From Methanobacteriota archaeon (GTDB taxonomy: Archaea; Halobacteriota; Bog-38; Methanoflorentales; Methanoflorentaceae), in the NCBI GenBank assembly GCA_963719035.1, contig CAVRAO010000012.1, positions 258,180 to 322,179 on the forward strand: DNA of 64,000 nucleotides. The letters are read 5' to 3'. The position numbers and the translations under genes were made by a program. This document shows, piece by piece, positions 3,478 through 29,800 of the stretch (within the stretch, counting starts at the first letter, position 1; each line of letters begins with the position of its first letter). The notes beneath the pieces were generated by a model. The model was not told the origin of the DNA and searched no databases. It was given only the letters and a program-made list of their open reading frames with translations.

Positions 3478-4146
3478 AGACTTCGCGCATGCAAATTGCA
3501 TGCAACTAAGTAGCCTGGACTAAATCCAACGAACTCCAAAAAAGATAGGTAGAATGAGGGACGAAAGCGGATCCGGACCGAGGATATTTAGAATAATCAA
3601 AAAAATGATTATCTCCGCCTTCGTCGGTGCCTCATAACGATAGAAACCAGATATACTTTTCTATTTGCGTTTGTTACTCTGTTTTAAGCAGAAACTTAGG
3701 GGTATTTAGCTTCAAGAAGGCGCTGCACAAGACCTTTTTTAAAACCATCGCACGCGTGGCCTGTCTATGTCGCCGGTCCGCTCACCGTACTATATGACAT
3801 AGCACAGCGCCATTATCAGGTCATCTTTAGAAGTCACCTCAGCTCTCAACGTGAGCGCCCCAGCTCGAGGAAATTAGGGAAATTTTTTTGGTGGAAGCGT
3901 ACCAAGTTGTATGAGGCCCTTAGCTGCAACTGTTTGCTGCGATCTGTGTCGTATCAGCAGATAAAGCGAACTTCGGCGGGTCAAAGGGGATATTGAACAT
4001 GGTAGGATTAGACGCCTTACGTCTGCTGTATTTGTGGAAAGCCTGTCATCTCGTAACGATCTCGTCTTGGATGAACGAAGTGTTTTAGAATCTGACTGCG
4101 GCTGGCAGTTGTTAGTGGTTTCCGACACGGAAACGATGATGATTGG

Positions 4147-4779
4147 CTACGAGGCAGCTCCCACACTCCACAAACCACGGTGCTCTTGCATCGCTAACAG
4201 CTGAGCCTCATAGAAAGTCTGTTTGCACGAGATGTCGGGCGGATATGGCGTCGCCTGAGCGTATCCTTCACGTACGAGCTCATAATTGACTAGGATATCC
4301 GCAACAAACACGAAACGGAGCAGGCGACCATATCTGTCAGTTTCCCTGACGTCTTTGACGAGAATGACGTTCTTGCCTGCGACAAGCTCTTTGTTCCTCG
4401 TGGTCGCTTCAGAGCTCATCCATTCGTTCTTCACCGTATCTTCCGGCGCGTTGATCCCAATATAGCGCACCGTGTAATCTACATCGTCGATGCGCACATG
4501 AACGGTATCCCCGTCGACGATTTTGGTAACGACGCCACTCGTTGTCCGAGCAGGCGTCGCGTTAATGCACGCAAATGAGCTTCCTGTTGTGAGAACAGGG
4601 GCAGAAATCGGCTCCCCGCTCGTGGGCGCTTGTGCACTGTGCTCGGTATCGTTGACTTCTTGTTGCGTTAAGCAGCCACAAACAGAAACCAAAAGTGCAA
4701 TAGCAATTATCACGTAAAGCGCTGGCTGTTCGCGCTTCATAAACATAAGACGGGGAGCAATGGCTTTCGAAGATGTCAC
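4147..4779 (-). CDS. secreted/lipoprotein thermonuclease (SNase family)
   Basis: KIVDGDT, VRYIGINAPE, DRYGRLLRFV, AMQEHRGLW; hydrophobic leader ending SVCGC; true start may be the internal M. Confidence 0.9.
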   Translation of the reverse strand: MTSSKAIAPRLMFMKREQPALYVIIAIALLVSVCGCLTQQEVNDTEHSAQAPTSGEPISAPVLTTGSSFACINATPARTTSGVVTKIVDGDTVHVRIDDVDYTVRYIGINAPEDTVKNEWMSSEATTRNKELVAGKNVILVKDVRETDRYGRLLRFVFVADILVNYELVREGYAQATPYPPDISCKQTFYEAQLLAMQEHRGLWSVGAAS

Positions 4780-4796
4780 GTTTTGCTTCCAAATGG

Positions 4797-5447
4797 CTAC
4801 CCTTGAAGTTGGGCAGTGCGAACTCCCATGTCAAAAGCTTTTTGGCAATCTTTGGGAAATTCTTCTTTTCGTCTCTTTGCTTTCTCTTGAACATCAAATA
4901 ATGTTGACTCATACTTAGAATAATCGTCAAATTGATAGGTATCGGTAACAAACAGCGATTCTGATTCTCCGAAGATCCTCTTTATCACCCTTTCAGCAAC
5001 CTTGAGATGCTGATCATAGCCCATTAGTTTCATCTGGTCTTCTCGCGCACCCATAGTGTAAATTAAACCCATCTTGATCTTCTTCTTAAAAAGCGTTGAA
5101 TGGTTCATATCATACACCAAGTACGGAAATATTAACCGTTCCATGAAGGATCTCATCTCGCCGGTAGCGGTTCCCAGGTAGATTGGAGAACCCAAGATAA
5201 TGGCATCAGCCTCCTCAGCTTTTTTGAGAATTGGTGTCAAATCGTCATTTACGGCGCACCTGCCATAGCTCTCGCCATTTTTCAATTTGCAGGCAAAACA
5301 GCTAATGCAGCCTTTAAAATTGAGCTTATAAAGATGAACAAGTTCAGTCTCTGCTCCGTGTGAAGCCGCTCCTTCAAGCGCGTTATTTAATAGGGTTGCG
5401 GTATTGCATTTAGTTCTCGGACTTCCGTTTATCGCTAATACTTTCAC
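4797..5447 (-). CDS. flavodoxin-fold iron-sulfur flavoprotein (Isf/WrbA-like)
   Basis: INGSPR...NT, CISCFAC...C Cys motif, GSPIY. Confidence 0.9.
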   Translation of the reverse strand: MKVLAINGSPRTKCNTATLLNNALEGAASHGAETELVHLYKLNFKGCISCFACKLKNGESYGRCAVNDDLTPILKKAEEADAIILGSPIYLGTATGEMRSFMERLIFPYLVYDMNHSTLFKKKIKMGLIYTMGAREDQMKLMGYDQHLKVAERVIKRIFGESESLFVTDTYQFDDYSKYESTLFDVQEKAKRRKEEFPKDCQKAFDMGVRTAQLQG

Positions 5448-15748: not shown

Positions 15749-16157
15749 TATTTACCTACTCCCAACGATGGCAGAAGAACGGGCATGTCGTGCTCCTTAA
15801 GCTCACAAAGAGCCTAAGCCGGTGCTGTGATTTGCACCATTTATAATAGGAATAACTGACTGCTTTTTCTGTCAACACACCACGGATACTCGCTGCTAGA
15901 ACAAGTTGGGCAGACGCCGGCTTGGTCGCTTCAAAATTTGGAAAGTTCGTCCTTGTGCTGCATCTGAACACCCGTGGTGCCGTGCAGATGGACAAACCGA
16001 TCAATTCCTTGATTGCGCTTGCGTTTACCTTATGAGCCGTTCGACCTTCGACAAATGGAATTAAAAATGGGGTCTAATTGATAAAAGAAGGAAATATTGG
16101 CCTTATTTGACAACGAAATCTTGATTTATTATTAAACATATGTGGCTTATTAGAGGT

Positions 16158-17154
16158 ATGGATATGGTCGATCAGACTTTAAAGGCTGAACAGCAACGCA
16201 AAGCTGCGGAAGCACTGCACAGGCTCCGAAGCCAGGCAAGTACTCCATTGGGACCGAACGTTACAATCAAACCCTCTGGGTCGGTTGGAAGGATACCTTT
16301 AGAAATGGGTGAACTTGCGGCCGAACATTACCGTTCTGCTGAGGGCTACGATCCAAACTTCCTCGGCGCTGAACACCAGCTTGAACTTCCTAAACTGGCA
16401 CCTGACCTCCAGCCCAAGGTGGCACAGCTCAAGAACGGAGGCGAAGTTCTCACTTACCATCACTTCTCGATTGTCATGAATGCCGAACGGCGACTCGCGT
16501 TTCATACCGCCGTAAATGTCGATGGTCGGCAATTGGAGCACGTAGAGCGTGATCGTGATAAGTGGTACTTCGATCTGCGTCTTGATGAACGGCTCCAGGC
16601 GGGGCCAGACCTATACTCCAACAATCCACTTGACTGTGGTCATCTGGTCCGTAGGCTCGATCCCTGTTGGGGATCAATAGCAGTTGCTGCGGGCGAAGAC
16701 ACCTTCCACTTTACGAACTGCTCACCCCAGCATTCTAAGCTCAATCAGCGTGATTGGCTTGAGATTGAAAGTTACGTCCTCAATACCGCAGACAACGCAG
16801 ATGTACGTATCTCGGTGTTCACAGGTCCCGTCTTCCGCGACGATGACATGCTCTATCGCGATGAATACCTGTTGCCTGCAGATTTTTGGAAGGTAGTAGC
16901 GTTCATCAATAAGAATGGCCAGCTTCGAGCTACTGCCTATGTGCGAACCCAGAAGAACTACCTTGAAAGTCTCAAGTTCTTCGATGACGAGTACCAAGAC
17001 ATGGCAGGTGCCAGTAGCACAGGTCGAAGCGCTCACAGGCCTATCTTTCGGGATACCGCAGGACGCTGACCCATTGACAAGGGTGGGGGTTAGCCGAGAA
17101 AGTCACAGACGCAATATCCGACAAATTAGATCCGCGCACGATATCCTGTTGTGA
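16158..17154 (+). CDS. DNA/RNA non-specific endonuclease (NucA/EndoG family); +1 frameshift at ~16995
   Basis: GYDPNFLG, YHHFSIVMNAERRLA, DCGHLVRR (DRGH-like), FHFTNCSPQH, FWKVV; C-terminus KTWQVPVAQVEALTGLSF in the next frame. Confidence 0.88.
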
Positions 17155-17339: not shown

Positions 17340-18170
17340 TTATAAGATAGACATATCTCTCTGTGTAGGTTCGCTCTCTAGCTGAGGCACTTGGGTATAC
17401 TTATCTTTCTTCAAATCGGCTATTACCTTCGTCAACAGCTCTTTTCGGGAGAGCTTGTTCTGGGTCGCATTCATCGCTTTGACCAAATAATAGGTAAAGG
17501 CCCCATGCCATGTTCCATCAATTTTTGCATCAGCGCTGGTCTGATCTGCCCTGCAACCGGCCCACAATATCTGATCAGTTACTCCGGATTCTAGCATTGC
17601 GCGATAGAATCCACGTGGACGCTTTCCATCGACTTTTTCGAAGGCAGCCAGCGATGGGGGAGGTAGATAACGTGGCTTACGATCCAATAGGAGATCAATT
17701 GCCTTTAGACCCGTCCCGCTATGACAGGTATCGAGGAAAACCTCTAACGATACATTGCTGGGAAGCTGAACGAACAGGTCGTGCAGCTCATCATCTACAA
17801 TTATATGTGCATGGTCCCACTCGCCGTCCTTTTCGGCTAGATCATTCGGGCAGAATGCCTCATCCGCTCTGTCAGGTTCATCTCCTTCTTTATCAGGTAC
17901 CTGAGTGCCGTGACTCGACATGCTAAGGACAAGAGATGCATATGTGCCTGCTTTTGCGCCAGCAACCATATCATTAAGATTTTTCATGATATTTGCCTTT
18001 GTGGCTTGACTGTCGGTCAACTCAACGACATCCGCAGCGGTGTATCCCAGATACTTTGTCAGCGCTGATTTCATATCTTGAACATCATTCACACATCCCT
18101 GTAACGCGGCCGAGGGATAGTTCTGGTATTGATTTATTCCAACACAAAGCGCTCGTCTACCGTTTGGCAT
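17340..18170 (-). CDS. caspase-like peptidase C14 (metacaspase)
   Basis: RALCVGINQY...LQGCVND; His in SSHGTQ; Cys in DTCHSG; QTSADA...GAFTYYL...QVPQL. Confidence 0.95.
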   Translation of the reverse strand: MPNGRRALCVGINQYQNYPSAALQGCVNDVQDMKSALTKYLGYTAADVVELTDSQATKANIMKNLNDMVAGAKAGTYASLVLSMSSHGTQVPDKEGDEPDRADEAFCPNDLAEKDGEWDHAHIIVDDELHDLFVQLPSNVSLEVFLDTCHSGTGLKAIDLLLDRKPRYLPPPSLAAFEKVDGKRPRGFYRAMLESGVTDQILWAGCRADQTSADAKIDGTWHGAFTYYLVKAMNATQNKLSRKELLTKVIADLKKDKYTQVPQLESEPTQRDMSIL

Positions 18171-18219: not shown

Positions 18220-19102
18220 TTATTCCTTGAAATCGCCCAAGTTAATCCATTCTGCGTGAACAAGGGACCACCAATCGACGGCAAGCCCTTTTAAAACGTA
18301 CTCATACGGAAGCCAGCCGTACCCACCGTCGCCCCATTTGTCGCCCCAAGAGTTCCTGATTAGCAGCGCACCGGTCGTCTCCGTGTTGCAGGCGTTGTTG
18401 ATCTTCATACCGTCATCATAGCCCACCGCGACGATGGCGTGGCCCCCCACCACCTGTTCTCTGGGACACGGCATGGGGATCTTTCCGTCGGCTTGTGCTT
18501 GTTTGATAGAGCTGTATACGGTAAAGCCGAACATCGCAGGGAGCTGTGTCGCTAAGGTCGTCTTGATACTTTCGAGCAGGACGTCCGCCGGCGTCGCAGG
18601 GGGGTCGAGACGGTAGTACCTTGATCGCATTATATTGCTGGCCAAAGGCGTAGAGGAAGGCAGGGGGTTCTACATCGAAATCAGGATCGTTATCCGTGTA
18701 GGGCCAGTACTCTTCGGGCGGAACGCCGAATAGGACGAGCGCTTTCATCGTTTCTCGCAGGTATCCACCGGTGTCCCCGGTCTCTTTCATAAGGTTTCTC
18801 GTCGCCTTGTAGAGAAAGAGACGCGATGCGTCGATAAAAATGCCGTTCGCCTTGTTCTGGAAGTACTCAACGAGCCCAACGCCCGCATTGGCGGTGCACG
18901 AACCGAGCTGTCGTTGATTTTCAACGGGAGAGCACCATTGCCGCAAGTCGACCGTGGAAGGCAGAGCGGCTTTGGTCGATCTGAGTGCCCCGCCTTGCTT
19001 CAGGGTCTTATTGACTTCTGACGTCTCGGGCGTATAATCGCGGAAATCGGGCAAGTCGCGACGCCATCCAAGACCATTGCCATCTATTGTGTTAGACAAC
19101 AT
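18220..19102 (-). CDS. papain-like C1 cysteine peptidase; +1 frameshift at ~18620
   Basis: GWRRDLPDFRD, QLGSCTANA (Cys), GGHAIVAVGY (His), IRNSWG (Asn), split over two ORFs. Confidence 0.92.
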
Positions 19103-19829
19103 ACTATTTTCCTCTTTTTTCACTTAAGTTCGGGTGTGTTTCAAACCAATGCTTCAATTTCGTGAGTCAGCCGTTTAACGCTGCAGATGACGGGCATGCG
19201 TAGCTGCTCAATCGAATTTCGTGAGCTGTTGTTGAGGTAGCTGAATGTGACTCTTTACCAAAGAGTCTATCAGAAAAACGCATACCAGGTTCAAAGGTGG
19301 CTTTGCTGCATTGAAGCATGATTAATTTTATATTAGTACGATTTCGTAAGAATAACTATATCTAAATTACGTAAAGTTTAAATATTACATTGTTATTTAG
19401 ATGCAATATTATAGTAACGTGGCAAAGCTGTATTACTTTGACAACTCGGGATGAACAAACGGATACATCTAGCTATATCGTATTTCCGCACACATTCTTG
19501 CAATCCTTGCTTCAAACATCTTATTTTGCGGTCTGAACAAAACTCGGGACATTAGGATAGAAGGATGGGACATGCTGTGCACATCTGCCCTTCTGTCGGC
19601 TATTGTGTCCCTCTGTTTAGCGGCGCATTTTCAGCAGATGACCCCTAGATCCTGCCGTCTTTAACAGAAGGTAGTGGCTGTTATATCCACTTTCAAAAGC
19701 GCGTCAAAACGCTGAATAAACAAAATAAGGCAATATTGACGAGCTTTAGCAACACAAGATTTATCGCTGACGGCCGTGATACTTTATCACTTTACGAGAA
19801 TTGTATGTGTAATTAAGTGAGGCAAGAGC

Positions 19830-20072
19830 ATGAATCAAGAACAGAAAGTCTTGTTAGTCTTTGGGCCGCCGCAATCTGGAACAAAATCTCTGGATCATCA
19901 ATTTGACAACATTGAAGTCGCGCTCGAGGACTTCGCGAGCTACTTTAAAGGATTCAAGATCAAGACGATCGAATTGTCTGTTTCTGGGGCGGTTGAGTCA
20001 GGCGGATTTCTGAGGCTTTTTGTCAGTGGAAAGGCTGAAGCTGCGGCTACCGTCGTCCTGGAACCGATATAA
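19830..20072 (+). CDS. small Pepco/Trypco-like (peptidase co-occurring) protein
   Basis: 80 aa: strand, GTKS, helix, then IKTIELSVSGAVESGG...VSGKAEAAATVVLEP beta-hairpin pattern; GAGG RBS; family call is by pattern only. Confidence 0.55.
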   Translation: MNQEQKVLLVFGPPQSGTKSLDHQFDNIEVALEDFASYFKGFKIKTIELSVSGAVESGGFLRLFVSGKAEAAATVVLEPI

Positions 20073-20244
20073 ACTGGTTATTCACTGAAGAATGCAAGCG
20101 AATACCACTTAAAAAGTGTCGCTAAAGTGAATGGAAGGTCATTGAGTCGCTGTTATCGGAATTCGCACGAGATAAAGCAACTTTTATCCCAAATAGACGT
20201 AAAGTAATTCGTTTAAAAAACAGGCACCATAAAACGGTTGCATT

Positions 20245-21267
20245 ATGGCTCACGACGTATTCATAAGCTACGCTGCAGAAGACCGATCAGCCGCAGAGGC
20301 GGCCCGCGCCGCCCTTGAGGCACAAGGCGTGAGCTGTTGGATCGCTCCTCGTGACGTGCTTCCTGGCGAAGACGAGACCGAGTCAATTCTTGCCGCCATC
20401 GACGCGAGCGGCGTCGTTGTTCTTTGCCTTAGTGCGGCTGCCAACGCGTCAAAACTCGTTACCCAGCAGGCGGCCCGCGCTTTTAACAAGAAGATCCCGA
20501 TCGTTCCGTTAAGGATTGAGGAAGTTGCGCCAAGTGACGCACTTAGGCTCTTCTTTGGCACGGGTGAGGTCGTTGATGCATATGTGCCGCCACTTGAGAG
20601 CAAGCTGCAACGGGTAGTAGAAATCGTCACTCTGCTCTTGAGGCAGCCGAGGCAGAAAAAACAGGAAGCGGTGTCTGACGTAGTCAGTGCAAGTTCGGCT
20701 GACGAAGAGCTGGCGTGGCTCGAACCGTGGGCCCTCGCAAAAGGGGGCAAGCTGCAGAAAACTGCTTCACCGGTGGCTGGAGAGGACAGGCCCACTCGGA
20801 GAAAAGATCAGTCTGGTGGGAAAAGATCTATAGCGCCTGTGTTTTTAGTTGCGGGCGTCTTGATAATCGGCATAGTCATTGCGGCCGCTCTGGCATCTAA
20901 TGTATCTCCTTCCGAGCTTATTGCTTCCTTTTTGAAACAGGCGAAGCAGCTGCAAGAGCAGATTGAAACGCCGTCCTCCACACCAACGTCAACGGCCAGT
21001 TTGACAGTGCTGTACTTTCAAAGACCAGACTGTTCCCACTGCGTAGAACTAGAGAACACAGCCAGCTTTCAGCAGCTTCAAAAGGAAGTAACCGTGCAAT
21101 CAGTAAGGACCGATCAAAGCCCGGCGACGCTCACAAACCAGTATGGAGTGACCGAAGTCCCAACGCTCATCTTGCTAAACAACGGGAAAGAAGTTGGTCG
21201 ATGGGTCGGTCCTACCGATGCTTCTGCTATCAACGTAAAATTAGACAGCGTGCGCGTAGCGGGTTAG
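20245..21267 (+). CDS. TIR domain + single TM + C-terminal thioredoxin-fold (CSHC) protein
   Basis: HDVFISYA...CWIAPRDVLPG; TM VFLVAGVLIIGIVIAAALA; YFQRPDCSHC...YGVTEVPTLILLNNGKEVGR. Confidence 0.9.
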   Translation: MAHDVFISYAAEDRSAAEAARAALEAQGVSCWIAPRDVLPGEDETESILAAIDASGVVVLCLSAAANASKLVTQQAARAFNKKIPIVPLRIEEVAPSDALRLFFGTGEVVDAYVPPLESKLQRVVEIVTLLLRQPRQKKQEAVSDVVSASSADEELAWLEPWALAKGGKLQKTASPVAGEDRPTRRKDQSGGKRSIAPVFLVAGVLIIGIVIAAALASNVSPSELIASFLKQAKQLQEQIETPSSTPTSTASLTVLYFQRPDCSHCVELENTASFQQLQKEVTVQSVRTDQSPATLTNQYGVTEVPTLILLNNGKEVGRWVGPTDASAINVKLDSVRVAG

Positions 21268-21287
21268 GGTCATAGCATGAGGGCGAA

Positions 21288-21377
21288 GAGCTGTTGGATC
21301 GCTCCTTGTGATGTGCTTCCTGGAAAAGACGAGACTGAGTCAATTCTTGCCGCCATCGACGCGAGCAGCGTCGTTGT
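21288..21377 (+). repeat. 90-bp third copy of the TIR betaB/BB-loop coding segment (matches 20331-20420 and 23782-23871)
   Basis: GAGCTGTTGGATCGCTCC...ATCGACGCGAGC(A/G)GCGTCGTTGT with ~6 substitutions; forms mini-ORF 21277-21381. Confidence 0.85.
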
Positions 21378-21422
21378 GTGACGTACGTTGTGAGTTAGTT
21401 TTAGGGAGGGTAGGGGGATAGG

Positions 21423-21923
21423 TTAGATGCTCGTGGCCAGCAAATAAAGCGCTACGAAAAGCAACAGGGTGTACGGAACGGCGAATAGTTGTGGCACGTA
21501 CCGCTCTATACGCGTCAAGGGTCGGTAAAGCCGAGAGTCTTTTCCCTTTCCAAGAACCTCCCACTCACGCGCATAAAAAGGAAACGCAAGGTTCTTTTCG
21601 ACTTCGAAGATCACCTTAAACTTGCCCGAGCTCAGCTGGCCGTGCGAACGAATGGTTACAAACCACATATAGCAGAGGAGCACGCCTAACATAGCGACCA
21701 CAAATAAAACAGTGCTCTGAATGGCGGTCGCGGTCTTTAGTGATACGACCGCTGCAAGAAGCGCGAGCAGTCCAGAGAGCAGCGATATGTAGAACTTGTT
21801 GGCATCCGCTCGGCGGTCGCTCACCTTGTCCGCCAGCTGGACGTAAAGCTTGTACTGATCGAGCAGCATGCCGACATTCGGATCGTGCTTCTCTTCTACC
21901 TTTTCCGTCACGTGCAGCTCCAT
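21423..21923 (-). CDS. RipA/8xMP-like oligomeric membrane protein (3 hydrophobic helices)
   Basis: LLDQYKLYVQLADKVSDRRADANKFY...WFVTIRSHGQLSSGKFKVIFEVEK...AREWEVLG...IERYVP. Confidence 0.7.
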   Translation of the reverse strand: MELHVTEKVEEKHDPNVGMLLDQYKLYVQLADKVSDRRADANKFYISLLSGLLALLAAVVSLKTATAIQSTVLFVVAMLGVLLCYMWFVTIRSHGQLSSGKFKVIFEVEKNLAFPFYAREWEVLGKGKDSRLYRPLTRIERYVPQLFAVPYTLLLFVALYLLATSI

Positions 21924-22133
21924 GCGTGTTCCTAATTTATATGCTCAACGTCATCAAGCCATCACTTGCTACTGATTTGAACTAGTGTGGTCTTTTGACG
22001 CACGTTACGATGCTAAATATAGTCAATATTGCCATTTTTTGTCAATTAAACGTCTCCAGGGTGTCCTTTTAAGGAAACAACGAAAGGTATTACTATTGCC
22101 ACAGCCAATATTTATGTTAAAATTTGTGGGAAC

Positions 22134-23603
22134 ATGGCTCGCGACGTCTTTATCAGCTATTCGTACGACGACAAAGTGATCGCCGACAAGGTTTGCAGCG
22201 CGCTTGAGGGCGCTGGTATACTCTGCTGGATCGCGCCACGCGATGAGCGACCCGGAGAGACGTGGGCGAGCAAGATCGTTCGGGCAATTGATGAGAGCCG
22301 CATAATGGTCCTCGTTCTCTCTGCGAGCTCGAACAAATCCAAGGACTGCACCAAAGAGGTCGCCATCGCCACCAGCGATGAAAAACTCATGCCGGTCATT
22401 CCACTGCGCATCGATGAGGTCAGCCTCACAGGTGACCTGAAGTACTACCTCGCGGGGATGCACCGGCTGGACGCCCTGCCGCCGCCGATTGATAACCATC
22501 TTGAGCGGCTTGTCGTCGACGTGCGGGATCTTCTCAATTCGGTGTCGTTATCGGAGGCTCAGTTAGAAAGCCCGAAAACCGATGCAATAAGCGCCAAAGT
22601 GCGTGACATGGACCTTGAACGGACGCAAGAGTGGATGGAAAAGGCAGAGAAGCTACGCGAGCTCGACCTTGATTCAGAGGCGCTCACGTGCTACGACAAA
22701 GCGCTCGCAAGCAATTCCGAAAACGCACCTGCGTTGAACGCGAAGGGGCTTATCCTCACCAAGCTTGATCGTCACGAGGAGGCCCTTCAATGTTTTGAGC
22801 AGTCGACTGAGGCTGATCCCGCATCGTTCGAGGCGTGGAAGAATAAAGGGATATGTCTCCAGGAACTCGGTCATTCTCATGAGGCGCTGGAGTGTTACGA
22901 CCGAGCCCTTGATATCGAGCCACTCGACGCAGGAGCGAGAGGGTTGAAATGTTCTGCCCTCCTTGACCTCAACGATGATAAAGCAGCGCTTACGTGCTGC
23001 GAAGCGGCGACGAAGATCGATCCGACAAGCTTTTCCCACTGGTTTTTCACAGGGGTGTGTCTTGCCAAGCTCGGTCGTCACCAAGAGTCCCTCGAGAGCC
23101 TTGATAAGGCGATTGCCCTCAACCCTCAAAACGCTGACGCCCTGTATCACAGAGGTGACGTTCTCGCGAAATGTGGCCGTCTCAAAGAGGCGATCGAGTC
23201 GTATGATCGAGTACTTCGCATTGACCCCGATCACGTACAAGCCTGGTTTAATAAAGGCGTATGCCTTGCGAGCTTTGGGCGGCACAGCGAGGCCATCGAC
23301 TGTTACGCGAAAGTGCGCACGATCGACCCAGCACACCCGGATTTGCAGCAGCAGCGCTCTGCCTCAGAAAAAGCACTTGGCTTTGCTACGTTGTTAGATC
23401 GGGCGACTATGCTCACCAGGGTCAACCGCCACCGCGAGGCCATCGAATGTTACGACAAGGTTTTAGCAAGCGACCCCTATAACGCAGACGCGTGGTACAA
23501 CAGGGGGCTCTCCTTCGCAAGCCTCGGCAACGCGAAAGAGGCTGCACGATGTTTTGACCGGTCTTTAGAACTCGCCTCAAATCACGCGAAAGCCGGGGTT
23601 TAA
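22134..23603 (+). CDS. TIR domain + TPR repeat protein
   Basis: DVFISYS...CWIAPRDERPG...SKDCTKEVAIA; ~9 TPRs (AWxNKG/CYDKAL). Confidence 0.92.
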   Translation: MARDVFISYSYDDKVIADKVCSALEGAGILCWIAPRDERPGETWASKIVRAIDESRIMVLVLSASSNKSKDCTKEVAIATSDEKLMPVIPLRIDEVSLTGDLKYYLAGMHRLDALPPPIDNHLERLVVDVRDLLNSVSLSEAQLESPKTDAISAKVRDMDLERTQEWMEKAEKLRELDLDSEALTCYDKALASNSENAPALNAKGLILTKLDRHEEALQCFEQSTEADPASFEAWKNKGICLQELGHSHEALECYDRALDIEPLDAGARGLKCSALLDLNDDKAALTCCEAATKIDPTSFSHWFFTGVCLAKLGRHQESLESLDKAIALNPQNADALYHRGDVLAKCGRLKEAIESYDRVLRIDPDHVQAWFNKGVCLASFGRHSEAIDCYAKVRTIDPAHPDLQQQRSASEKALGFATLLDRATMLTRVNRHREAIECYDKVLASDPYNADAWYNRGLSFASLGNAKEAARCFDRSLELASNHAKAGV

Positions 23604-23695
23604 GGCCCTGGATGTTTCAAAGATAGCCGTTGAAACTCGCACGAAGTCGCAAAAGCTAAGAAGTAGATTAAGCGCACGATCGAACGGATGCACTT

Positions 23696-24490
23696 ATGGC
23701 TCACGACGTATTCATAAGCTACGCTGCAGAAGACCGATCAGCTGCAGAGGCGGCCCGCGCCGCCCTTGAGGCACAGGACGTGAGCTGTTGGATCGCTCCT
23801 CGTGACGTGCTTCCTGGCGAAGACGAGACCGAGTCAATTCTTGCCGCTATCGACGCGAGCAGCGTCGTTGTCGTTTGCCTGAGTTCGGCTGCCAACGCGT
23901 CAAAACTCGTTACCCAACAAGCGGCCCGCGCTTTTAACAAGAGGATCCCGATCGTTCCGTTAAGGGTTGAGGACGTGGGGCCAAGCGAAGCGCTCAAGCT
24001 ATTCTTAGGTGCTCAAGAGCCGGTTGATGCTTATACCCCTCCGCTCGAATCCCCTCTTGCCGCACTTGGTGTGGTTATTGGCTCGCTTTTGGCACAAACT
24101 GCAGCACCGGCCGCCGGAATAATGTCTCCTCCCGGACTTCCCTACGAGGAGGGGACTCCTGCAGTACGCAAGCGACGAGGCGGCGCGCCGCCTCGTCGTG
24201 CCGGGGGGAAAGTGCTCATCATCGCTGCCCTCGTTGCCCTTGCGATTATCGTTATCGCCGCGATATTCTTTTTGCTCCCGCAATCTCAGGTTCAGCTCAT
24301 TGCAGTCTCGTCTGAGACTCCTGGGGAGTCTCCAAGCCCCACGGAAAAGCCTACCATCCTCCCTACGCAAGAGCCCTCTTTGGTCCCTACGCCCACGACC
24401 CCTACACCCACGACCCCTACGCCCACGACCCCTACGCCCACGACCCCTACACCCACGACCCCTACGCTCCCCCCCTACGGCGCTTGGTGA
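23696..24490 (+). CDS. TIR domain + single TM + Pro/Thr-rich stalk protein (possibly C-terminally truncated)
   Basis: TIR nearly identical to the 20245 gene; basic RKRR before TM VLIIAALVALAIIVIAAIFFLL; (PTPTT)n. Confidence 0.88.
   Translation: MAHDVFISYAAEDRSAAEAARAALEAQDVSCWIAPRDVLPGEDETESILAAIDASSVVVVCLSSAANASKLVTQQAARAFNKRIPIVPLRVEDVGPSEALKLFLGAQEPVDAYTPPLESPLAALGVVIGSLLAQTAAPAAGIMSPPGLPYEEGTPAVRKRRGGAPPRRAGGKVLIIAALVALAIIVIAAIFFLLPQSQVQLIAVSSETPGESPSPTEKPTILPTQEPSLVPTPTTPTPTTPTPTTPTPTTPTPTTPTLPPYGAW
24385..24467 (+). repeat. 15-bp tandem repeat CCCTAC(G/A)CCCACGAC x5 plus a partial copy
   Basis: read directly; encodes the PTPTT stalk. Confidence 0.9.
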
Positions 24491-24771: not shown

Positions 24772-26088
24772 ATGGACGAGTCGTATTTCGTTGTTTCTGA
24801 TGTTCATTTGGGTGCTAAGGACTGCTGCAAGGAAGAGTTTGAGCACTTTTTGGAATGGCTCGCGAGCAGTTATAGTGGCGGCACGCTATCTGTCCAGACG
24901 CAACGGGGAAAACGTACGCTCGCCCCGCCAACCACGCTGATCTTGTTAGGTGACATGCTGGAGCTTTGGATCCCCCGCGAATACGAGCGAAGCAGCGTGC
25001 TGTGCGACAGCTCGTCTATCTTCAGCAAGCTCATCGATCTGAGCTGTAAGAAGGTGTATGTTCTCGGTAACCACGACGCCGATTTGTGCGATCACGAGTG
25101 CGAGAAAGACAGCCACCAGGACAACTCGTTCCAAGCGCTTATAGAGTGGATTTGCGCCAATGATTCTCACTTCGAAGTGGTTCCGCGACACTATCCGAAC
25201 TGTCCTGATGATGTACTCAAACAACGGGTCCGACTGGGGGATAAGGACTACCTGTTCATTCATGGCCAGCAGTTTGACCGAGATTTTAAGACGAGCCGTG
25301 GACTTGTTCGGTTTGTTCCGTTTATGGCAGCAATTGCTTCGGCGTTCGACTTTTTTCCAAAGGCTGGACCGATCTTCTTTGTTCTTTCTCTCGCACTCAT
25401 TGGGCTCTATGTCGTGGCAGCCGCCGCCTTACTCCTAATTGATCCCTTGTGGTTCCTTGTACTGTTAGTACTCGTCGGGTACCCGGGTTTTTCTTGGCTC
25501 ATCGTGAGGCTTTTCAAACCGGCGTGGGAGTTCAAAAAAACGTTTTCTGCGGTTGTTGCCCTTACTGGTCGATCACAGGATGACGTCTTAAGCTCTCCTT
25601 GGGACGTCAATCGGAACATAAACAGCCTCAAACACGCGCTTTACGAAATAAAGAAACAACAAGACCGCCCAAAGTACAGGAACATCAACAAAATCATAAG
25701 TGAGGGGTATTACCGCTTCGACAAAGACGTTTCAAAGCCGGATGTTATCGTCTTTGGCCACACCCACGTGCCCGAAATATGTAATTCAATGCGCGTAGGT
25801 GATGATAACGGCAAGCCAGCTATGCGACAGTTCGTGAACAGTGGCATGTGGATTCGGCCTGGTCAGCGACAAGAGCACAAGAGCGTACTGCAGAGTGGCG
25901 CACCTCTGTGCGAAGAGGACGAGGACAGTGCGAGGAATGAGGACGCTCTTTATAACACGTTCGTATACATTGACAACGAGGGGGCAACCCTCTGGCGGTG
26001 GTGTGACTTGGAACGAACGGCAAAAGAGATTCCTGCGTCAGACTGCTCATCCAGAACTGTCTCTTCGTCTACAACATCAACAAGTTAA
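24772..26088 (+). CDS. calcineurin-like metallophosphoesterase with a 2-TM insertion
   Basis: SDVHLG, GDMLE, GNHD, IHGQQFD, FGHTH, VNSG motifs; hydrophobic hairpin in the middle. Confidence 0.88.
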   Translation: MDESYFVVSDVHLGAKDCCKEEFEHFLEWLASSYSGGTLSVQTQRGKRTLAPPTTLILLGDMLELWIPREYERSSVLCDSSSIFSKLIDLSCKKVYVLGNHDADLCDHECEKDSHQDNSFQALIEWICANDSHFEVVPRHYPNCPDDVLKQRVRLGDKDYLFIHGQQFDRDFKTSRGLVRFVPFMAAIASAFDFFPKAGPIFFVLSLALIGLYVVAAAALLLIDPLWFLVLLVLVGYPGFSWLIVRLFKPAWEFKKTFSAVVALTGRSQDDVLSSPWDVNRNINSLKHALYEIKKQQDRPKYRNINKIISEGYYRFDKDVSKPDVIVFGHTHVPEICNSMRVGDDNGKPAMRQFVNSGMWIRPGQRQEHKSVLQSGAPLCEEDEDSARNEDALYNTFVYIDNEGATLWRWCDLERTAKEIPASDCSSRTVSSSTTSTS

Positions 26089-29239: not shown

Positions 29240-29800
29240 GTGGCTAAGCACTGGCGAGAAGTAAAAAACGAAATCGAGGAGGAAATAGACCGAATATGGT
29301 GGGAGGAGCCTGAGGAAGTCACGATGAGCCGACTAGGGATATTCCCAAGTGGGGCAGGGACAGACGGCCAGGTATTGGGGAACCTTTTGTTCCTTGTCGC
29401 GGACACTCAGGCCATGGGATGGTGGACCACCGAGCCTGCGATCCGATCCGCGATCGCAGATCCCGTCTTTACGCTTGAGCACTGCAAGCGAATGTGGAAG
29501 TACTTGACTGTGCACATGGCCAAGCTCTTGGGCGATACCGACCCTCCTAACTGCCCTGCTCCATGGTTAAATTTGCCCAAGCTTGTCGAGCTCTGCAATG
29601 ACATTGTAGACTCCTTGGACACCGTTGAGACAAAGGAGGAGTTTGCCGATCTCATCTGGAGCTGGGAAAATTACGTGAACCGACTGAACAAGTGGTTCTC
29701 CCTCGTGTTCCCCTGGCACGTGGGGCTCGATTTTCCCAGGAGGGGACCAGAGGACATCGACGAGATGGTTCGTCTATCGCACTTGTGGGAAAAACGGTGA
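29240..29800 (+). CDS. cucumopine synthase C-terminal helical-bundle-like protein
   Basis: EIDRIWWEEPEE...SGAGTDGQ...VETKEEF...YVNRLNKWFSLVFPWHVG; starts 3 bp after the partner gene. Confidence 0.75.
   Translation: MAKHWREVKNEIEEEIDRIWWEEPEEVTMSRLGIFPSGAGTDGQVLGNLLFLVADTQAMGWWTTEPAIRSAIADPVFTLEHCKRMWKYLTVHMAKLLGDTDPPNCPAPWLNLPKLVELCNDIVDSLDTVETKEEFADLIWSWENYVNRLNKWFSLVFPWHVGLDFPRRGPEDIDEMVRLSHLWEKR

Follow-up and report, generated by a model that had tools for sequence, protein, structure and literature searches.

A candidate Thoeris-like signalling module with membrane-anchored, glutamate-less TIR domains in an archaeon

What might a TIR domain do in an archaeon when it is fixed to the membrane and lacks its catalytic glutamate? 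The question is raised by a stretch of 64,000 nucleotides (the window) whose archaeal origin is borne out by SSU models (archaeal 1582.6 bits versus bacterial 1151.7). The three open reading frames singled out by the initial annotation are real, and each starts with a TIR_2 domain (PF13676; 69.6, 77.6 and 68.6 bits in gene order, cut-off 28). They encode a 340-residue TIR(Gln75)-TM-thioredoxin protein (20245–21267, plus strand; TIR_2 E-value 4.3e-19), a soluble 489-residue TIR(Glu75)-TPR protein (22134–23603, plus strand; TIR_2 1.5e-21, TPR_1 8.2e-65) and a 264-residue TIR(Gln75)-TM-Pro/Thr-stalk protein (23696–24490, plus strand; TIR_2 9e-19), with codon 75 reading CAG at 20467, GAG at 22356 and CAA at 23918, respectively. 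Membrane anchoring of the two Gln-TIRs holds up as well: each has a single strongly hydrophobic stretch (residues 199–217 of the 340-residue protein and 173–191 of the 264-residue one, the latter covered by helix 170–193 of its AF2 model), and TIR-TPR has no TM-like stretch. Lys and Arg number five in the 15 residues before the TM segment and one in the 15 after it in the longer protein, and seven and none in the shorter, and the predicted topology is the one proposed, with the TIR inside and the C terminus outside. The longer protein carries the CSHC motif and a Thioredoxin match over residues 251–333 (34.5 bits, cut-off 23.5; 2.1e-8), a domain placed on the outer side by the positive-inside rule only; the tail of the shorter one is indeed rich in Pro and Thr.

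Two further elements, absent from the initial annotation, lie between the first Gln-TIR gene and the TIR-TPR gene. One is a gene for an 8xMP membrane protein and the other is the relic of a third Gln-type TIR (21277–21381, plus strand; 35 codons including a TGA), found with tblastn and with a TIR HMM built for this analysis (33 bits). In the tblastn alignment, 34 codons match TIR residues 26–59 at 77% identity, with one TGA at the end; at the nucleotide level the relic is 81–82% identical to both Gln-TIR genes and 49% identical to the TIR-TPR gene.

Whether the anchored TIRs are dead enzymes turns on residue 75. The alphaC glutamate is described as critical for NADase activity in a published TIR survey (PMC7075850), and residue 75 does sit in the corresponding helix (70–81) of the AF2 model of the 264-residue protein, which has a pLDDT above 90 over residues 1–130. 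HMMER alignments match it to the Glu of the oyster TIR-STING TIR, and Foldseek gives target-normalised TM-scores of up to 0.78 to the TIRs of AbTir, SARM1, MAL and TRR-2. An alignment of the 253 best-scoring relatives, with 303 TIR domains among them, has Glu at this position 282 times, Gln 12 times, Asp 3 times and another residue 3 times, with 3 gaps; leaving the Gln-bearing proteins aside, 282 of 288 aligned residues are Glu. Glu is also found in all 183 TIR domains of 157 further, mostly bacterial, loci. The 12 Gln cases all belong to one small clade, known from the window's genus and from unplaced metagenome fragments, which a tree computed without the motif columns recovers as a single branch (SH-aLRT 99, stem length 0.51); the TIR of TIR-TPR is not near it.

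The clade has altered more than one residue. At E77, H108, W109 and H120, too, it no longer matches the family consensus, and no Asp or Glu occurs at positions 69–80 in any member, so no substitute acidic residue is at hand there. The TIR fold is kept, together with F6, S8, D13, E25, C31, W32, R36, D37, G41, S63, N67 and S69, and the region around the BB loop is the best-preserved part. Taken together, these changes agree with the earlier description of the anchored TIRs as dead, and judging by their sequences the Gln-TIRs are very probably not NADases. TIR-TPR has the catalytic Glu that both anchored proteins lack and keeps H108 and H120, but it has Arg in place of W109 (94% conserved in the family) and Ala in place of E77, and its enzymatic activity is therefore an assumption.

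With which protein, then, would TIR-TPR act? Divergently encoded across a 210-bp intergenic region (21924–22133) is the 8xMP protein (PF24838, 7.5e-40; 166 residues; 21423–21923, minus strand), a candidate effector with three TM-like stretches and long helices at residues 15–61, 66–109 and 142–165 of its AF2 model (pLDDT 82.6). The initial annotation had placed a pore-type gene near the TIRs, and a link between 8xMP and TIR genes is indeed found in many lineages. In a phylum sample of 401 genomes, 13 of the 14 genes with a strong 8xMP match (86 bits or more) directly adjoin a TIR gene, which is a small upstream ThsB_TIR in eight cases (all eight above the Pfam cut-off) and a TIR_2 in five. On plasmids of bacteria and archaea, an annotated TIR gene lies immediately upstream of 8xMP in seven of ten loci drawn from 25 records with an 8xMP match; three of these seven have a second TIR gene, and one operon runs caspase-TIR-8xMP-TIR. 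No TIR neighbour was found for the strong 8xMP gene G006:C18 or for the other three plasmid loci, and 16 weaker 8xMP matches had no PF13676 match nearby, in a search by PF13676 only. The two genes are divergent in the window's genus, but most other lineages have both on one strand, with 8xMP downstream of the TIR gene. The Atlas names the 8xMP family after RipA, which two abstracts present as a membrane protein connected with the function of LpxA, and the family may thus also have housekeeping roles. As in Thoeris-type pairs, a Glu-bearing TIR gene here adjoins a partner gene in a pairing that recurs across lineages, and on gene content the best-supported core of the locus would be 8xMP with TIR-TPR, rather than the caspase or the nuclease encoded nearby.

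The Gln-TIRs have a narrower distribution. Apart from metagenome fragments they occur in two genomes of one genus, G000 and G010, and in both of these one Gln-TIR gene is directly downstream of the TIR-TPR gene, in line with the linkage that had been proposed. G010 has the whole trio of 8xMP (minus strand), TIR-TPR (plus) and Gln-TIR (plus), the last being a syntenic copy of the 264-residue protein, although a 1-bp deletion breaks its TIR-TPR frame, through decay or through a mistake in the assembly. The divergent 8xMP/TIR layout is seen twice in G010 and also in G018, from the sister genus. There the divergent partner of 8xMP (plus strand) encodes a soluble TIR(Glu)-TrmB protein, and the gene for a tail-anchored TIR(Glu) protein comes about 1.7 kb later. 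Synteny handed down by descent may be all that links Gln-TIR to TIR-TPR. The Gln-TIRs are a lineage-specific addition and most likely act as non-catalytic partners or regulators.

On this basis we tentatively favour a Thoeris-like signalling module to which this lineage has added components of its own, in which the role of the core is read from conserved gene pairing and that of the Gln-TIRs is our interpretation. The soluble TIR-TPR would be both sensor and NAD+-consuming signal generator, its TPR part presumably perceiving the trigger, and the three-helix 8xMP protein would be the membrane effector that responds to it, comparable to the small ring-formers of type V and type VII Thoeris. The two Gln-TIR paralogues, each held at the inner side of the membrane by a single TM helix, may be TIR pseudoenzymes that join or cap TIR-TPR assemblies at the 8xMP-bearing membrane and so serve as a brake or a nucleator. 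Their variable C termini could tune localisation or input and would be dispensable for the basic role.

The initial annotation had read the same genes in a Toll-like manner, with Gln-TIR ectodomains sensing outside the cell and recruiting TIR-TPR, whose signal would fire caspase, nuclease and pore. The single-pass topology with the TIR inside stands, and the way in which a nearly constant Gln-TIR, always laid out as TIR, basic patch and one TM helix, is joined to diverse C termini (thioredoxin, DUF4352, a Pro/Thr stalk, an unknown beta-rich domain) is what a receptor family might look like. The likeness to Toll-like receptors stops there, as there are no LRRs, the TIR is N-terminal, and bacteria very commonly have proteins built in this way, from an N-terminal TIR, a TM helix and a variable C terminus, that retain the Glu. 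The C terminus is predicted to be outside, but sensing there is doubtful because some members have no ectodomain: P0004 and P0005 stop at the TM helix, and two kinds of member, the syntenically conserved copy among them, bear just a low-complexity stalk. Possible effector genes do lie 2–4 kb off, namely a 276-residue caspase-family Peptidase_C14 protein (17340–18170, minus strand; 2.5e-30, residues 5–269) and a 309-residue non-specific endonuclease (Endonuclease_NS; 16140–17069, plus strand; 3.4e-43), and the caspase-TIR-8xMP-TIR plasmid operon speaks for such wiring. A caspase output nevertheless fares poorly. The protease gene is on the opposite strand, two ORFs from the TIRs (a broken C1 peptidase gene and one of 80 residues); the protein has no Pfam domain besides C14 and hence no counterpart of the C-terminal sensor domain of the type IV Thoeris protease; and a C14 match is absent from three other genomes of the genus (G010, G006 and G007), although G010 keeps the trio, and in G018 lies elsewhere in the genome. 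We regard this receptor model as improbable.

A stronger contender, though still an unlikely one, is that the Gln-TIRs have nothing to do with TIR-TPR and 8xMP. Their inert TIR fold would then serve for oligomerisation or docking in the cytoplasm, in aid of work outside it such as thiol-disulfide chemistry, and they would be here only through tandem duplication of this family's TIR genes within a variable island. Tandem TIRs are common (two or more in 23 of the 157 other loci), the relic looks like duplication debris, the Gln clade does not sit near the TIR of TIR-TPR in the tree, and neighbours vary between G000, G010 and metagenome contig L029. For example, the gene for a 438-residue metallophosphoesterase (24772–26088, plus strand; Metallophos 3.3e-8, TM-like stretch 205–223) follows the Gln-TIR in L029 as well, and not in G010. 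Against independence, a set of soluble TIR, anchored TIR and 8xMP recurs in the second genus, the anchored TIR there being of the Glu type; the 264-residue Gln-TIR gene starts 92 bp past the TIR-TPR stop codon with no T-run in the gap; and what the Gln clade has kept best is the BB-loop region, which mediates TIR–TIR contacts in known assemblies. We see a slimmer chance still that the Gln-TIRs bind NAD+ or a TIR product without turnover, as a membrane-bound sponge that guards against self-activation or as a signal receptor beside 8xMP, or that they use another residue for catalysis. Selection has preserved the fold and many of the positions that line the pocket, and Glu-to-Gln mutants of TIR enzymes are common substrate traps, but the additional loss of E77, H108, W109 and H120 argues for a dismantled pocket and the stretch at 69–80 offers no acidic residue. 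Finally, decaying pseudogenes or a sequencing artefact might be suspected from the relic and from the frameshift next door in G010, an explanation that is largely refuted. Both Gln-TIR frames are intact, and their dN/dS values of 0.10, 0.32 and 0.35 indicate maintenance by purifying selection. Ten of the 12 clade members share exactly the same altered motif, and the remaining two vary at one or two other motif positions. The two copies use different Gln codons, an argument against read error that had been made at the outset and is upheld here; independent contigs from three other metagenome runs span the locus, and none of the 40 differences listed (of 112) falls in the three codons.

Among known systems, the favoured Thoeris-like module is closest to types V (TIR with the three-TM protein DUF2270) and VII (TIR with SLATT), which have been shown to protect against phage (10.64898/2025.12.03.692087). 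In type V, as reported there, a ThsB TIR is likewise encoded beside a small three-TM protein expected to form a ring (ThsF), and the 8xMP–TIR pairing is similarly widespread across lineages, often in defence-like surroundings. The membrane partner is a different one, however, belonging to PF24838 and not PF10028. It does not show the homology to DUF2270 expected of ThsF: a Pfam search of the protein returns 8xMP only, a profile–profile comparison with DUF2270 (hhalign) gives a probability of 0.6%, and no PF10028 match was found in G000. Two DUF2270 genes match 8xMP weakly, at about 20 bits, which is a hint only. The present locus, known from sequence alone, further differs from type V in its TPR-bearing TIR, its divergent genes, its two Glu-less anchored paralogues and its archaeal host. 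With type VII, whose effector is ThsH, it would share a multi-pass membrane effector, here a predicted one, that is coupled to a TIR signal, although 8xMP has no SLATT match at E-values up to 10. Elsewhere in the genome, on contig C6, another anchored TIR follows a 409-residue membrane protein with sub-threshold SLATT_1 and DUF4231 matches. In type IV Thoeris, as defined in 10.1101/2024.10.24.620036, the caspase-like protease ends in a sensor domain, and no more than one gene separates it from the TIR. The C14 gene less than 3 kb from the TIR genes and the caspase-TIR-8xMP-TIR plasmid operon recall this arrangement, but the locus is not an example of it: C14 fills residues 5–269 of 276, two ORFs and a strand change intervene, and G010 has no C14 match.

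All three TIR proteins belong to a large, unstudied prokaryotic family with an N-terminal TIR_2, a TM helix or repeats and a variable C terminus (19,575 clusters with an E-value of 0.001 or below; FGE-sulfatase, Sel1, WD40, TPR and RDD among the C-terminal domains), from which the Gln clade is set apart by the lack of Glu75. Animal Toll-like and IL-1 receptors offer a parallel in topology only, that of a single-pass protein with a (here predicted) non-enzymatic cytoplasmic TIR near a soluble TIR protein. The nearest solved TIRs by sequence include those of Hydra TRR-2, oyster TIR-STING and TLR1/2/6, and a Hydra TIR protein that is anchored but lacks a ligand-binding domain has been recorded (PMC7075850). 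In the archaeal proteins the orientation is reversed, LRR and Ig ectodomains are absent and the soluble partner keeps the catalytic Glu; with no LRRs and an N-terminal TIR, they are not Toll-like receptors. In plants, RRS1 and RPS4 are TIR-NLRs encoded by adjacent genes, and in their TIR heterodimer one TIR restrains or licenses the other. The locus resembles this pair (PDB 4c6t) in its adjacent genes for TIR domains, the heterodimer being a feature of RRS1/RPS4; those proteins are NLRs and, unlike the Gln-TIRs, not membrane-anchored, and homology is limited to the TIR fold. If the module works as we propose, regulation of an enzymatic TIR by non-enzymatic ones may extend beyond animals and plants.

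The locus lies within C12:258180-322179 of a 2.19-Mb genome (G000) in 13 contigs, whose SSU rRNA scores 1582.6 bits with the archaeal model versus 1151.7 bits with the bacterial one. Two genes for membrane-anchored TIR proteins with Gln at position 75 (Gln-TIRs), one ending in a thioredoxin domain (20245-21267, +) and one in a Pro/Thr stalk (23696-24490, +), flank the gene of an 8xMP (PF24838) membrane protein (21423-21923, −) and that of a soluble TIR-TPR protein with Glu at this position (22134-23603, +). On the upstream side, an Endonuclease_NS gene (16140-17069, +) and a C14 caspase-family gene (17340-18170, −), both called from an ORF and a domain match, are followed by a papain-type C1 peptidase (18220-19123, −) and an 80-aa ORF without a family (19830-20072, +). 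Downstream are a metallophosphoesterase with a TM-like stretch (24772-26088, +) and, farther along in the 16.1-28.7 kb surveyed, genes for a PNPOx-like protein and a PrsW protease. PADLOC returned weak single-domain TIR and caspase matches only and no system model, and the Rfam and tRNA scans over the window gave no matches.

Some features of this region deserve mention in their own right. The C1 peptidase gene is split into overlapping frames of 141 aa and 235 aa, probably by a frameshift or an assembly error, and intact homologues of 275 aa and 297 aa are encoded near the TIR locus of G010, a genome of the same genus. Directly past the stop of the thioredoxin-ended gene, the remains of a third Gln-type TIR gene, a relic of 35 codons (21277-21381, +), terminate in TGA; its DNA is 81-82% identical to both intact Gln-TIR copies, and we read it as the leftover of a duplication or cassette exchange. 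A contig from one metagenome run, X9 (depth 2; 24 letters on the short side), joins 20598 to 24055 and skips 3456 bases, so that the first Gln-TIR gene runs into the third TIR gene without 8xMP and TIR-TPR in between; support for the joint is weak and, if it is real, some strains hold one recombined Gln-TIR without the core pair. One RNA-library contig of 259 nt covers 20206-20464 with zero differences, which is too little for claiming transcription. At 29240-29800 (+), a 186-aa ORF carries a cucumopine synthase C-terminal helical bundle domain (1.1e-20), unexpected in an archaeon.

Codon 75 of the three TIR genes reads, in order, CAG (20467), GAG (22356) and CAA (23918), as the initial annotation had it. 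One survey, in its accessible part, reports the TIR Glu between βC and βD as conserved in over 70% of TIR domains and as critical to NADase activity (PMC7075850). In HMMER alignments, position 75 coincides with this Glu in the TIR domain of oyster TIR-STING. In the AF2 model of the 264-aa, stalk-ended Gln-TIR, residues 1-130 adopt the TIR fold with pLDDT >90, residue 75 falls within helix 70-81, and a separate helix (170-193) corresponds to the membrane anchor. Foldseek matches this model to enzymatic and scaffold TIRs alike (PdTIR, BtpA, SPARTA, SARM1, AbTir, MAL, MyD88 and TRR-2), with target-normalised TM-scores of up to 0.78. The assignment of position 75 rests on sequence alignment, secondary structure and family conservation.

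The TIR family comprises 19,575 clusters (50% identity, E-values up to 0.001), in which the TIR domain typically comes first and is followed by a TM helix and a variable domain or by soluble repeats; FGE-sulfatase, Sel1, WD40, TPR, RDD, SH3 and others occur as C-terminal parts. We aligned the best 253 proteins by score, that is, the nearest relatives of the query and not a random sample, and in their 303 TIR domains position 75 holds Glu in 282 cases, Gln in 12, Asp in three and Tyr, Arg and Ala in one each, and is gapped in three. The Gln proteins and the close relatives (61-92% identity) are one and the same set of 12, of which 10 share an identical changed motif. Across 157 further loci from metagenomes and species genomes, mostly bacterial, the residue is Glu in 183/183 TIR domains. 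The metagenome and species-genome scans yielded two close Gln-TIR relatives, L029 on a metagenome contig (90% identity) and L109 (79%), the latter a duplicate of the G010 locus and so counted once. In a set of 61 related genomes, only G000 and G010, of one genus, have matches above 60% identity.

In a tree built without the motif columns, the nine included Gln sequences fall on one branch with an SH-aLRT support of 99 and a long stem (0.51), which we read as a single origin followed by conservation. Besides E75Q, the clade departs from the family consensus at E77, H108, W109, H120, R74 and a few other residues, and it retains its core and the surroundings of the BB loop (C31, W32, R36, D37 and G41). 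For the TIR domain, dN/dS is 0.10 between the syntenic G000 and G010 copies, at a dS of 1.19 that is near saturation, 0.32 between the two window copies and 0.35 against L029. Because they form a single conserved clade with several changed residues and dN/dS of 0.10-0.35, the Gln-TIRs are, judged from their sequences, under selection, neither errors nor pseudogenes, and probably non-catalytic. That they represent decay or an artefact is, beside this conservation, very improbable.

Every member of the Gln clade consists of a TIR domain, a linker and a single strongly hydrophobic helix. Lys and Arg number 4-7 in the 15 residues ahead of the helix (2 in P0004) and 0-2 past it in all members, so that, by the positive-inside rule, the TIR domain would lie inside and the C-terminus outside. 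The C-termini vary, from a thioredoxin domain with CSHC through DUF4352 and a Pro/Thr/Ser-rich stalk to a β-rich domain and one other, both without a family; P0004 and P0005 have no C-terminal part and end at the helix. The existence of tail-anchored and stalk-only forms weakens outside sensing as the common function of the clade.

The trio of 8xMP (−), TIR-TPR (+) and stalk-ended Gln-TIR (+) is conserved in two species of one genus, G010 being the second; the G010 locus has no counterpart of the first Gln-TIR, of the caspase or of the metallophosphoesterase. Compared with the window, the G010 TIR-TPR gene (L026, G010:C1:472000-490000, at about 8095) has lost 1 bp, perhaps through recent decay or an assembly error, and the two frames that result (118 aa and 396 aa) are otherwise well conserved. 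The wider region (L026 and L198, G010:C1:472-508 kb) is a variable island with, in about 25 kb, a DNA methyltransferase-like ORF, PLD-family, Trypco1 and YdjM-like proteins, two C1 peptidases, three TIR genes and three 8xMP matches, of which one is truncated and one weak. In G018, from the sister genus, 8xMP and a soluble TIR(Glu)-TrmB gene are divergently oriented, and about 1.7 kb farther lies a tail-anchored TIR(Glu) gene whose TIR domain is nearly identical. The set of soluble TIR, anchored TIR and 8xMP, here with Glu in place, is thus older than the loss of the Glu.

Genome G000 has five TIR_2 matches, three of them in this locus, and the remaining two retain Glu. One is an anchored TIR-TM-PsbP-like protein on contig C6 (L001, G000:C6:116313-119639), whose gene comes after that of a membrane protein of 409 aa (ORFs 1489-2523 and 98-1327, respectively); the latter protein gives SLATT_1, DUF4231 and SLATT_3 matches below threshold, and the two may be a second pair of TIR and membrane effector, of the type VII Thoeris kind. 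The other, at about 120 kb on C12 (L005, G000:C12:118983-122324, ORF 106-1902, −), is a 598-aa fusion of a TIR that has its Glu with an NPHP3_N/NACHT-type NTPase and a winged-helix domain, and looks like a STAND-type TIR protein.

The 8xMP protein has three TM-like stretches and a confident, all-helical AF2 model (pLDDT 82.6). Among 401 genomes of the phylum, 30 matches reach the Pfam cut-off, and a TIR gene directly adjoins 13 of the 14 strongest (86.9-151.9 bits), the exception being G006:C18. The neighbour is a TIR_2 gene in five cases, in G000, G010 (two), G018 and G006, and in eight a small ThsB_TIR (PF08937) immediately upstream on the same strand, passing the Pfam cut-off in 8/8. A search directed at PF13676 found no match near the 16 weaker 8xMP genes (31-57 bits). 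No 8xMP gene occurs at any of the 157 mostly bacterial loci retrieved with the TIR query, so that the association goes from 8xMP to TIR and not from this TIR family to 8xMP. In one ThsB-type case (L191, G220:C2:131000-141000, 3640-5341), a 313-aa TIR ORF with a long N-terminal extension overlaps the 8xMP ORF by about 25 bases; L190 encodes a similarly extended TIR, and the long N-terminal regions of both have no assigned family.

The pairing is broad. Outside the phylum, tblastn found 8xMP homologues in 25 plasmid records, and an annotated TIR gene lies immediately upstream in 7 of 10 inspected loci, from Alpha- and Betaproteobacteria, a cyanobacterium, two haloarchaea and a Clostridium plasmid; the other three show no TIR among the scanned neighbours. 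A second TIR gene is present at 3/7 of the TIR-positive loci, and all full-length second TIRs retain Glu. One plasmid (L207, NZ_CP065633.1, 1052-3365) carries a co-directional operon for a caspase family protein, a TIR, the 8xMP homologue (annotated 'hypothetical') and another TIR, and is the only locus seen with a caspase gene directly joined to the pair.

Searches for relatives of 8xMP returned little: phmmer against solved structures gave one designed protein only (E 0.019), Foldseek with the AF2 model gave no matches at E-values up to 0.001, NCBIfam has no family for it, and we found no paper on the family by name or accession. Kinship was not detectable with SLATT, which gave no match even at E-values up to 10, nor with DUF2270 (hhalign probability 0.6%). 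Two strong DUF2270 genes (G043:C78:75207-75755 and G033:C1:1307506-1308030) also match 8xMP weakly (about 20 bits) in the same place, and despite the negative profile-profile comparison the two families may be very distantly related.

We infer that the locus encodes Thoeris-like TIR signalling with a membrane effector, its new elements being 8xMP as partner and anchored TIR paralogues that lack the Glu. A functional link between TIR and 8xMP is likely. TIR-TPR and 8xMP would form a Thoeris-like sensor/effector pair, and the Gln-TIRs, because they keep the BB-loop region, which matters for assembly, and have lost pocket residues, may be non-catalytic partners of TIR-TPR at the membrane, acting as a brake or a nucleator. 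Taken by itself, such a regulatory role is tentative and rather doubtful; the combination of a TIR-TPR and 8xMP pair with non-catalytic Gln-TIR regulators is plausible, if not quite probable. A more specific version, in which membrane-tethered Gln-TIRs co-assemble with catalytic TIR-TPR through the conserved BB-loop face and thereby gate the synthesis of a nucleotide that acts as the signal to open the adjacent 8xMP ring, would make them the first prokaryotic TIR pseudoenzymes to signal by scaffolding, and we hold it improbable as it stands. Complex prediction for TIR-TPR 1-145 with Gln-TIR 1-140, each supplied with an alignment, gave a score of 0.00 in two of two runs, which speaks neither for nor against contact. 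That the Gln-TIRs function independently of TIR-TPR and 8xMP seems unlikely, if worth keeping in mind. That they bind nucleotide or act as a sponge has to be squared with the lost pocket residues and is still less credible.

The initial annotation had proposed that dead anchored receptors sense outside the membrane and recruit or restrain TIR-TPR, with caspase, pore and nuclease outputs. Its anchored Glu-less TIRs, the TIR that keeps its Glu and a pore-like partner hold up, so that it was partly right; it went too far with its caspase and nuclease outputs and with outside sensing, the last faced with members lacking an ectodomain. In the accessible part of its description (10.1101/2024.10.24.620036), the type IV Thoeris protease carries a sensor domain at its C-terminus and is no more than one gene away from the TIR, unlike the window caspase, a bare C14 domain two ORFs from the TIR on the other strand. 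G010 gave no C14 match, and we do not count the caspase as a type IV protease. A receptor-to-caspase model is improbable.

Prokaryotic TIR domains are known as enzymes, and signalling by TIRs that act as scaffolds without enzymatic activity is seen as characteristic of animals and also of some plant sensor NLRs. In the portion of the literature available to us, we found no work on prokaryotic TIR partners that lack the Glu, nor on anchored TIRs of prokaryotes. With a selected, membrane-tethered, Glu-less clade encoded beside a Glu-TIR and a membrane protein linked to TIRs, the origin of scaffold-type signalling would become directly testable and, if the co-assembly described here is real, the clade would be an archaeal counterpart of animal receptor/adaptor TIRs and plant sensor/executor TIR pairs. 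The 8xMP-TIR pair offers an initial lead on the function of PF24838 and, with 13/14 strong cases in one archaeal phylum and 7/10 plasmid loci spanning Cyanobacteriota, Pseudomonadota, Bacillota and haloarchaea, makes 8xMP a concrete candidate for a further class of Thoeris effectors.

The closest known systems are described in a 2025 preprint (10.64898/2025.12.03.692087), the accessible part of which reports types V-XI as verified: type V combines a TIR with DUF2270, a 3-TM protein modelled as a ring, and type VII a TIR with SLATT. The same part counts 29 putative effector types, several of them TM proteins, among which 8xMP may already figure. If the Gln-TIRs do gate a signal that opens an 8xMP ring, TIR and 8xMP would form a further widespread Thoeris type, common to bacteria and archaea.
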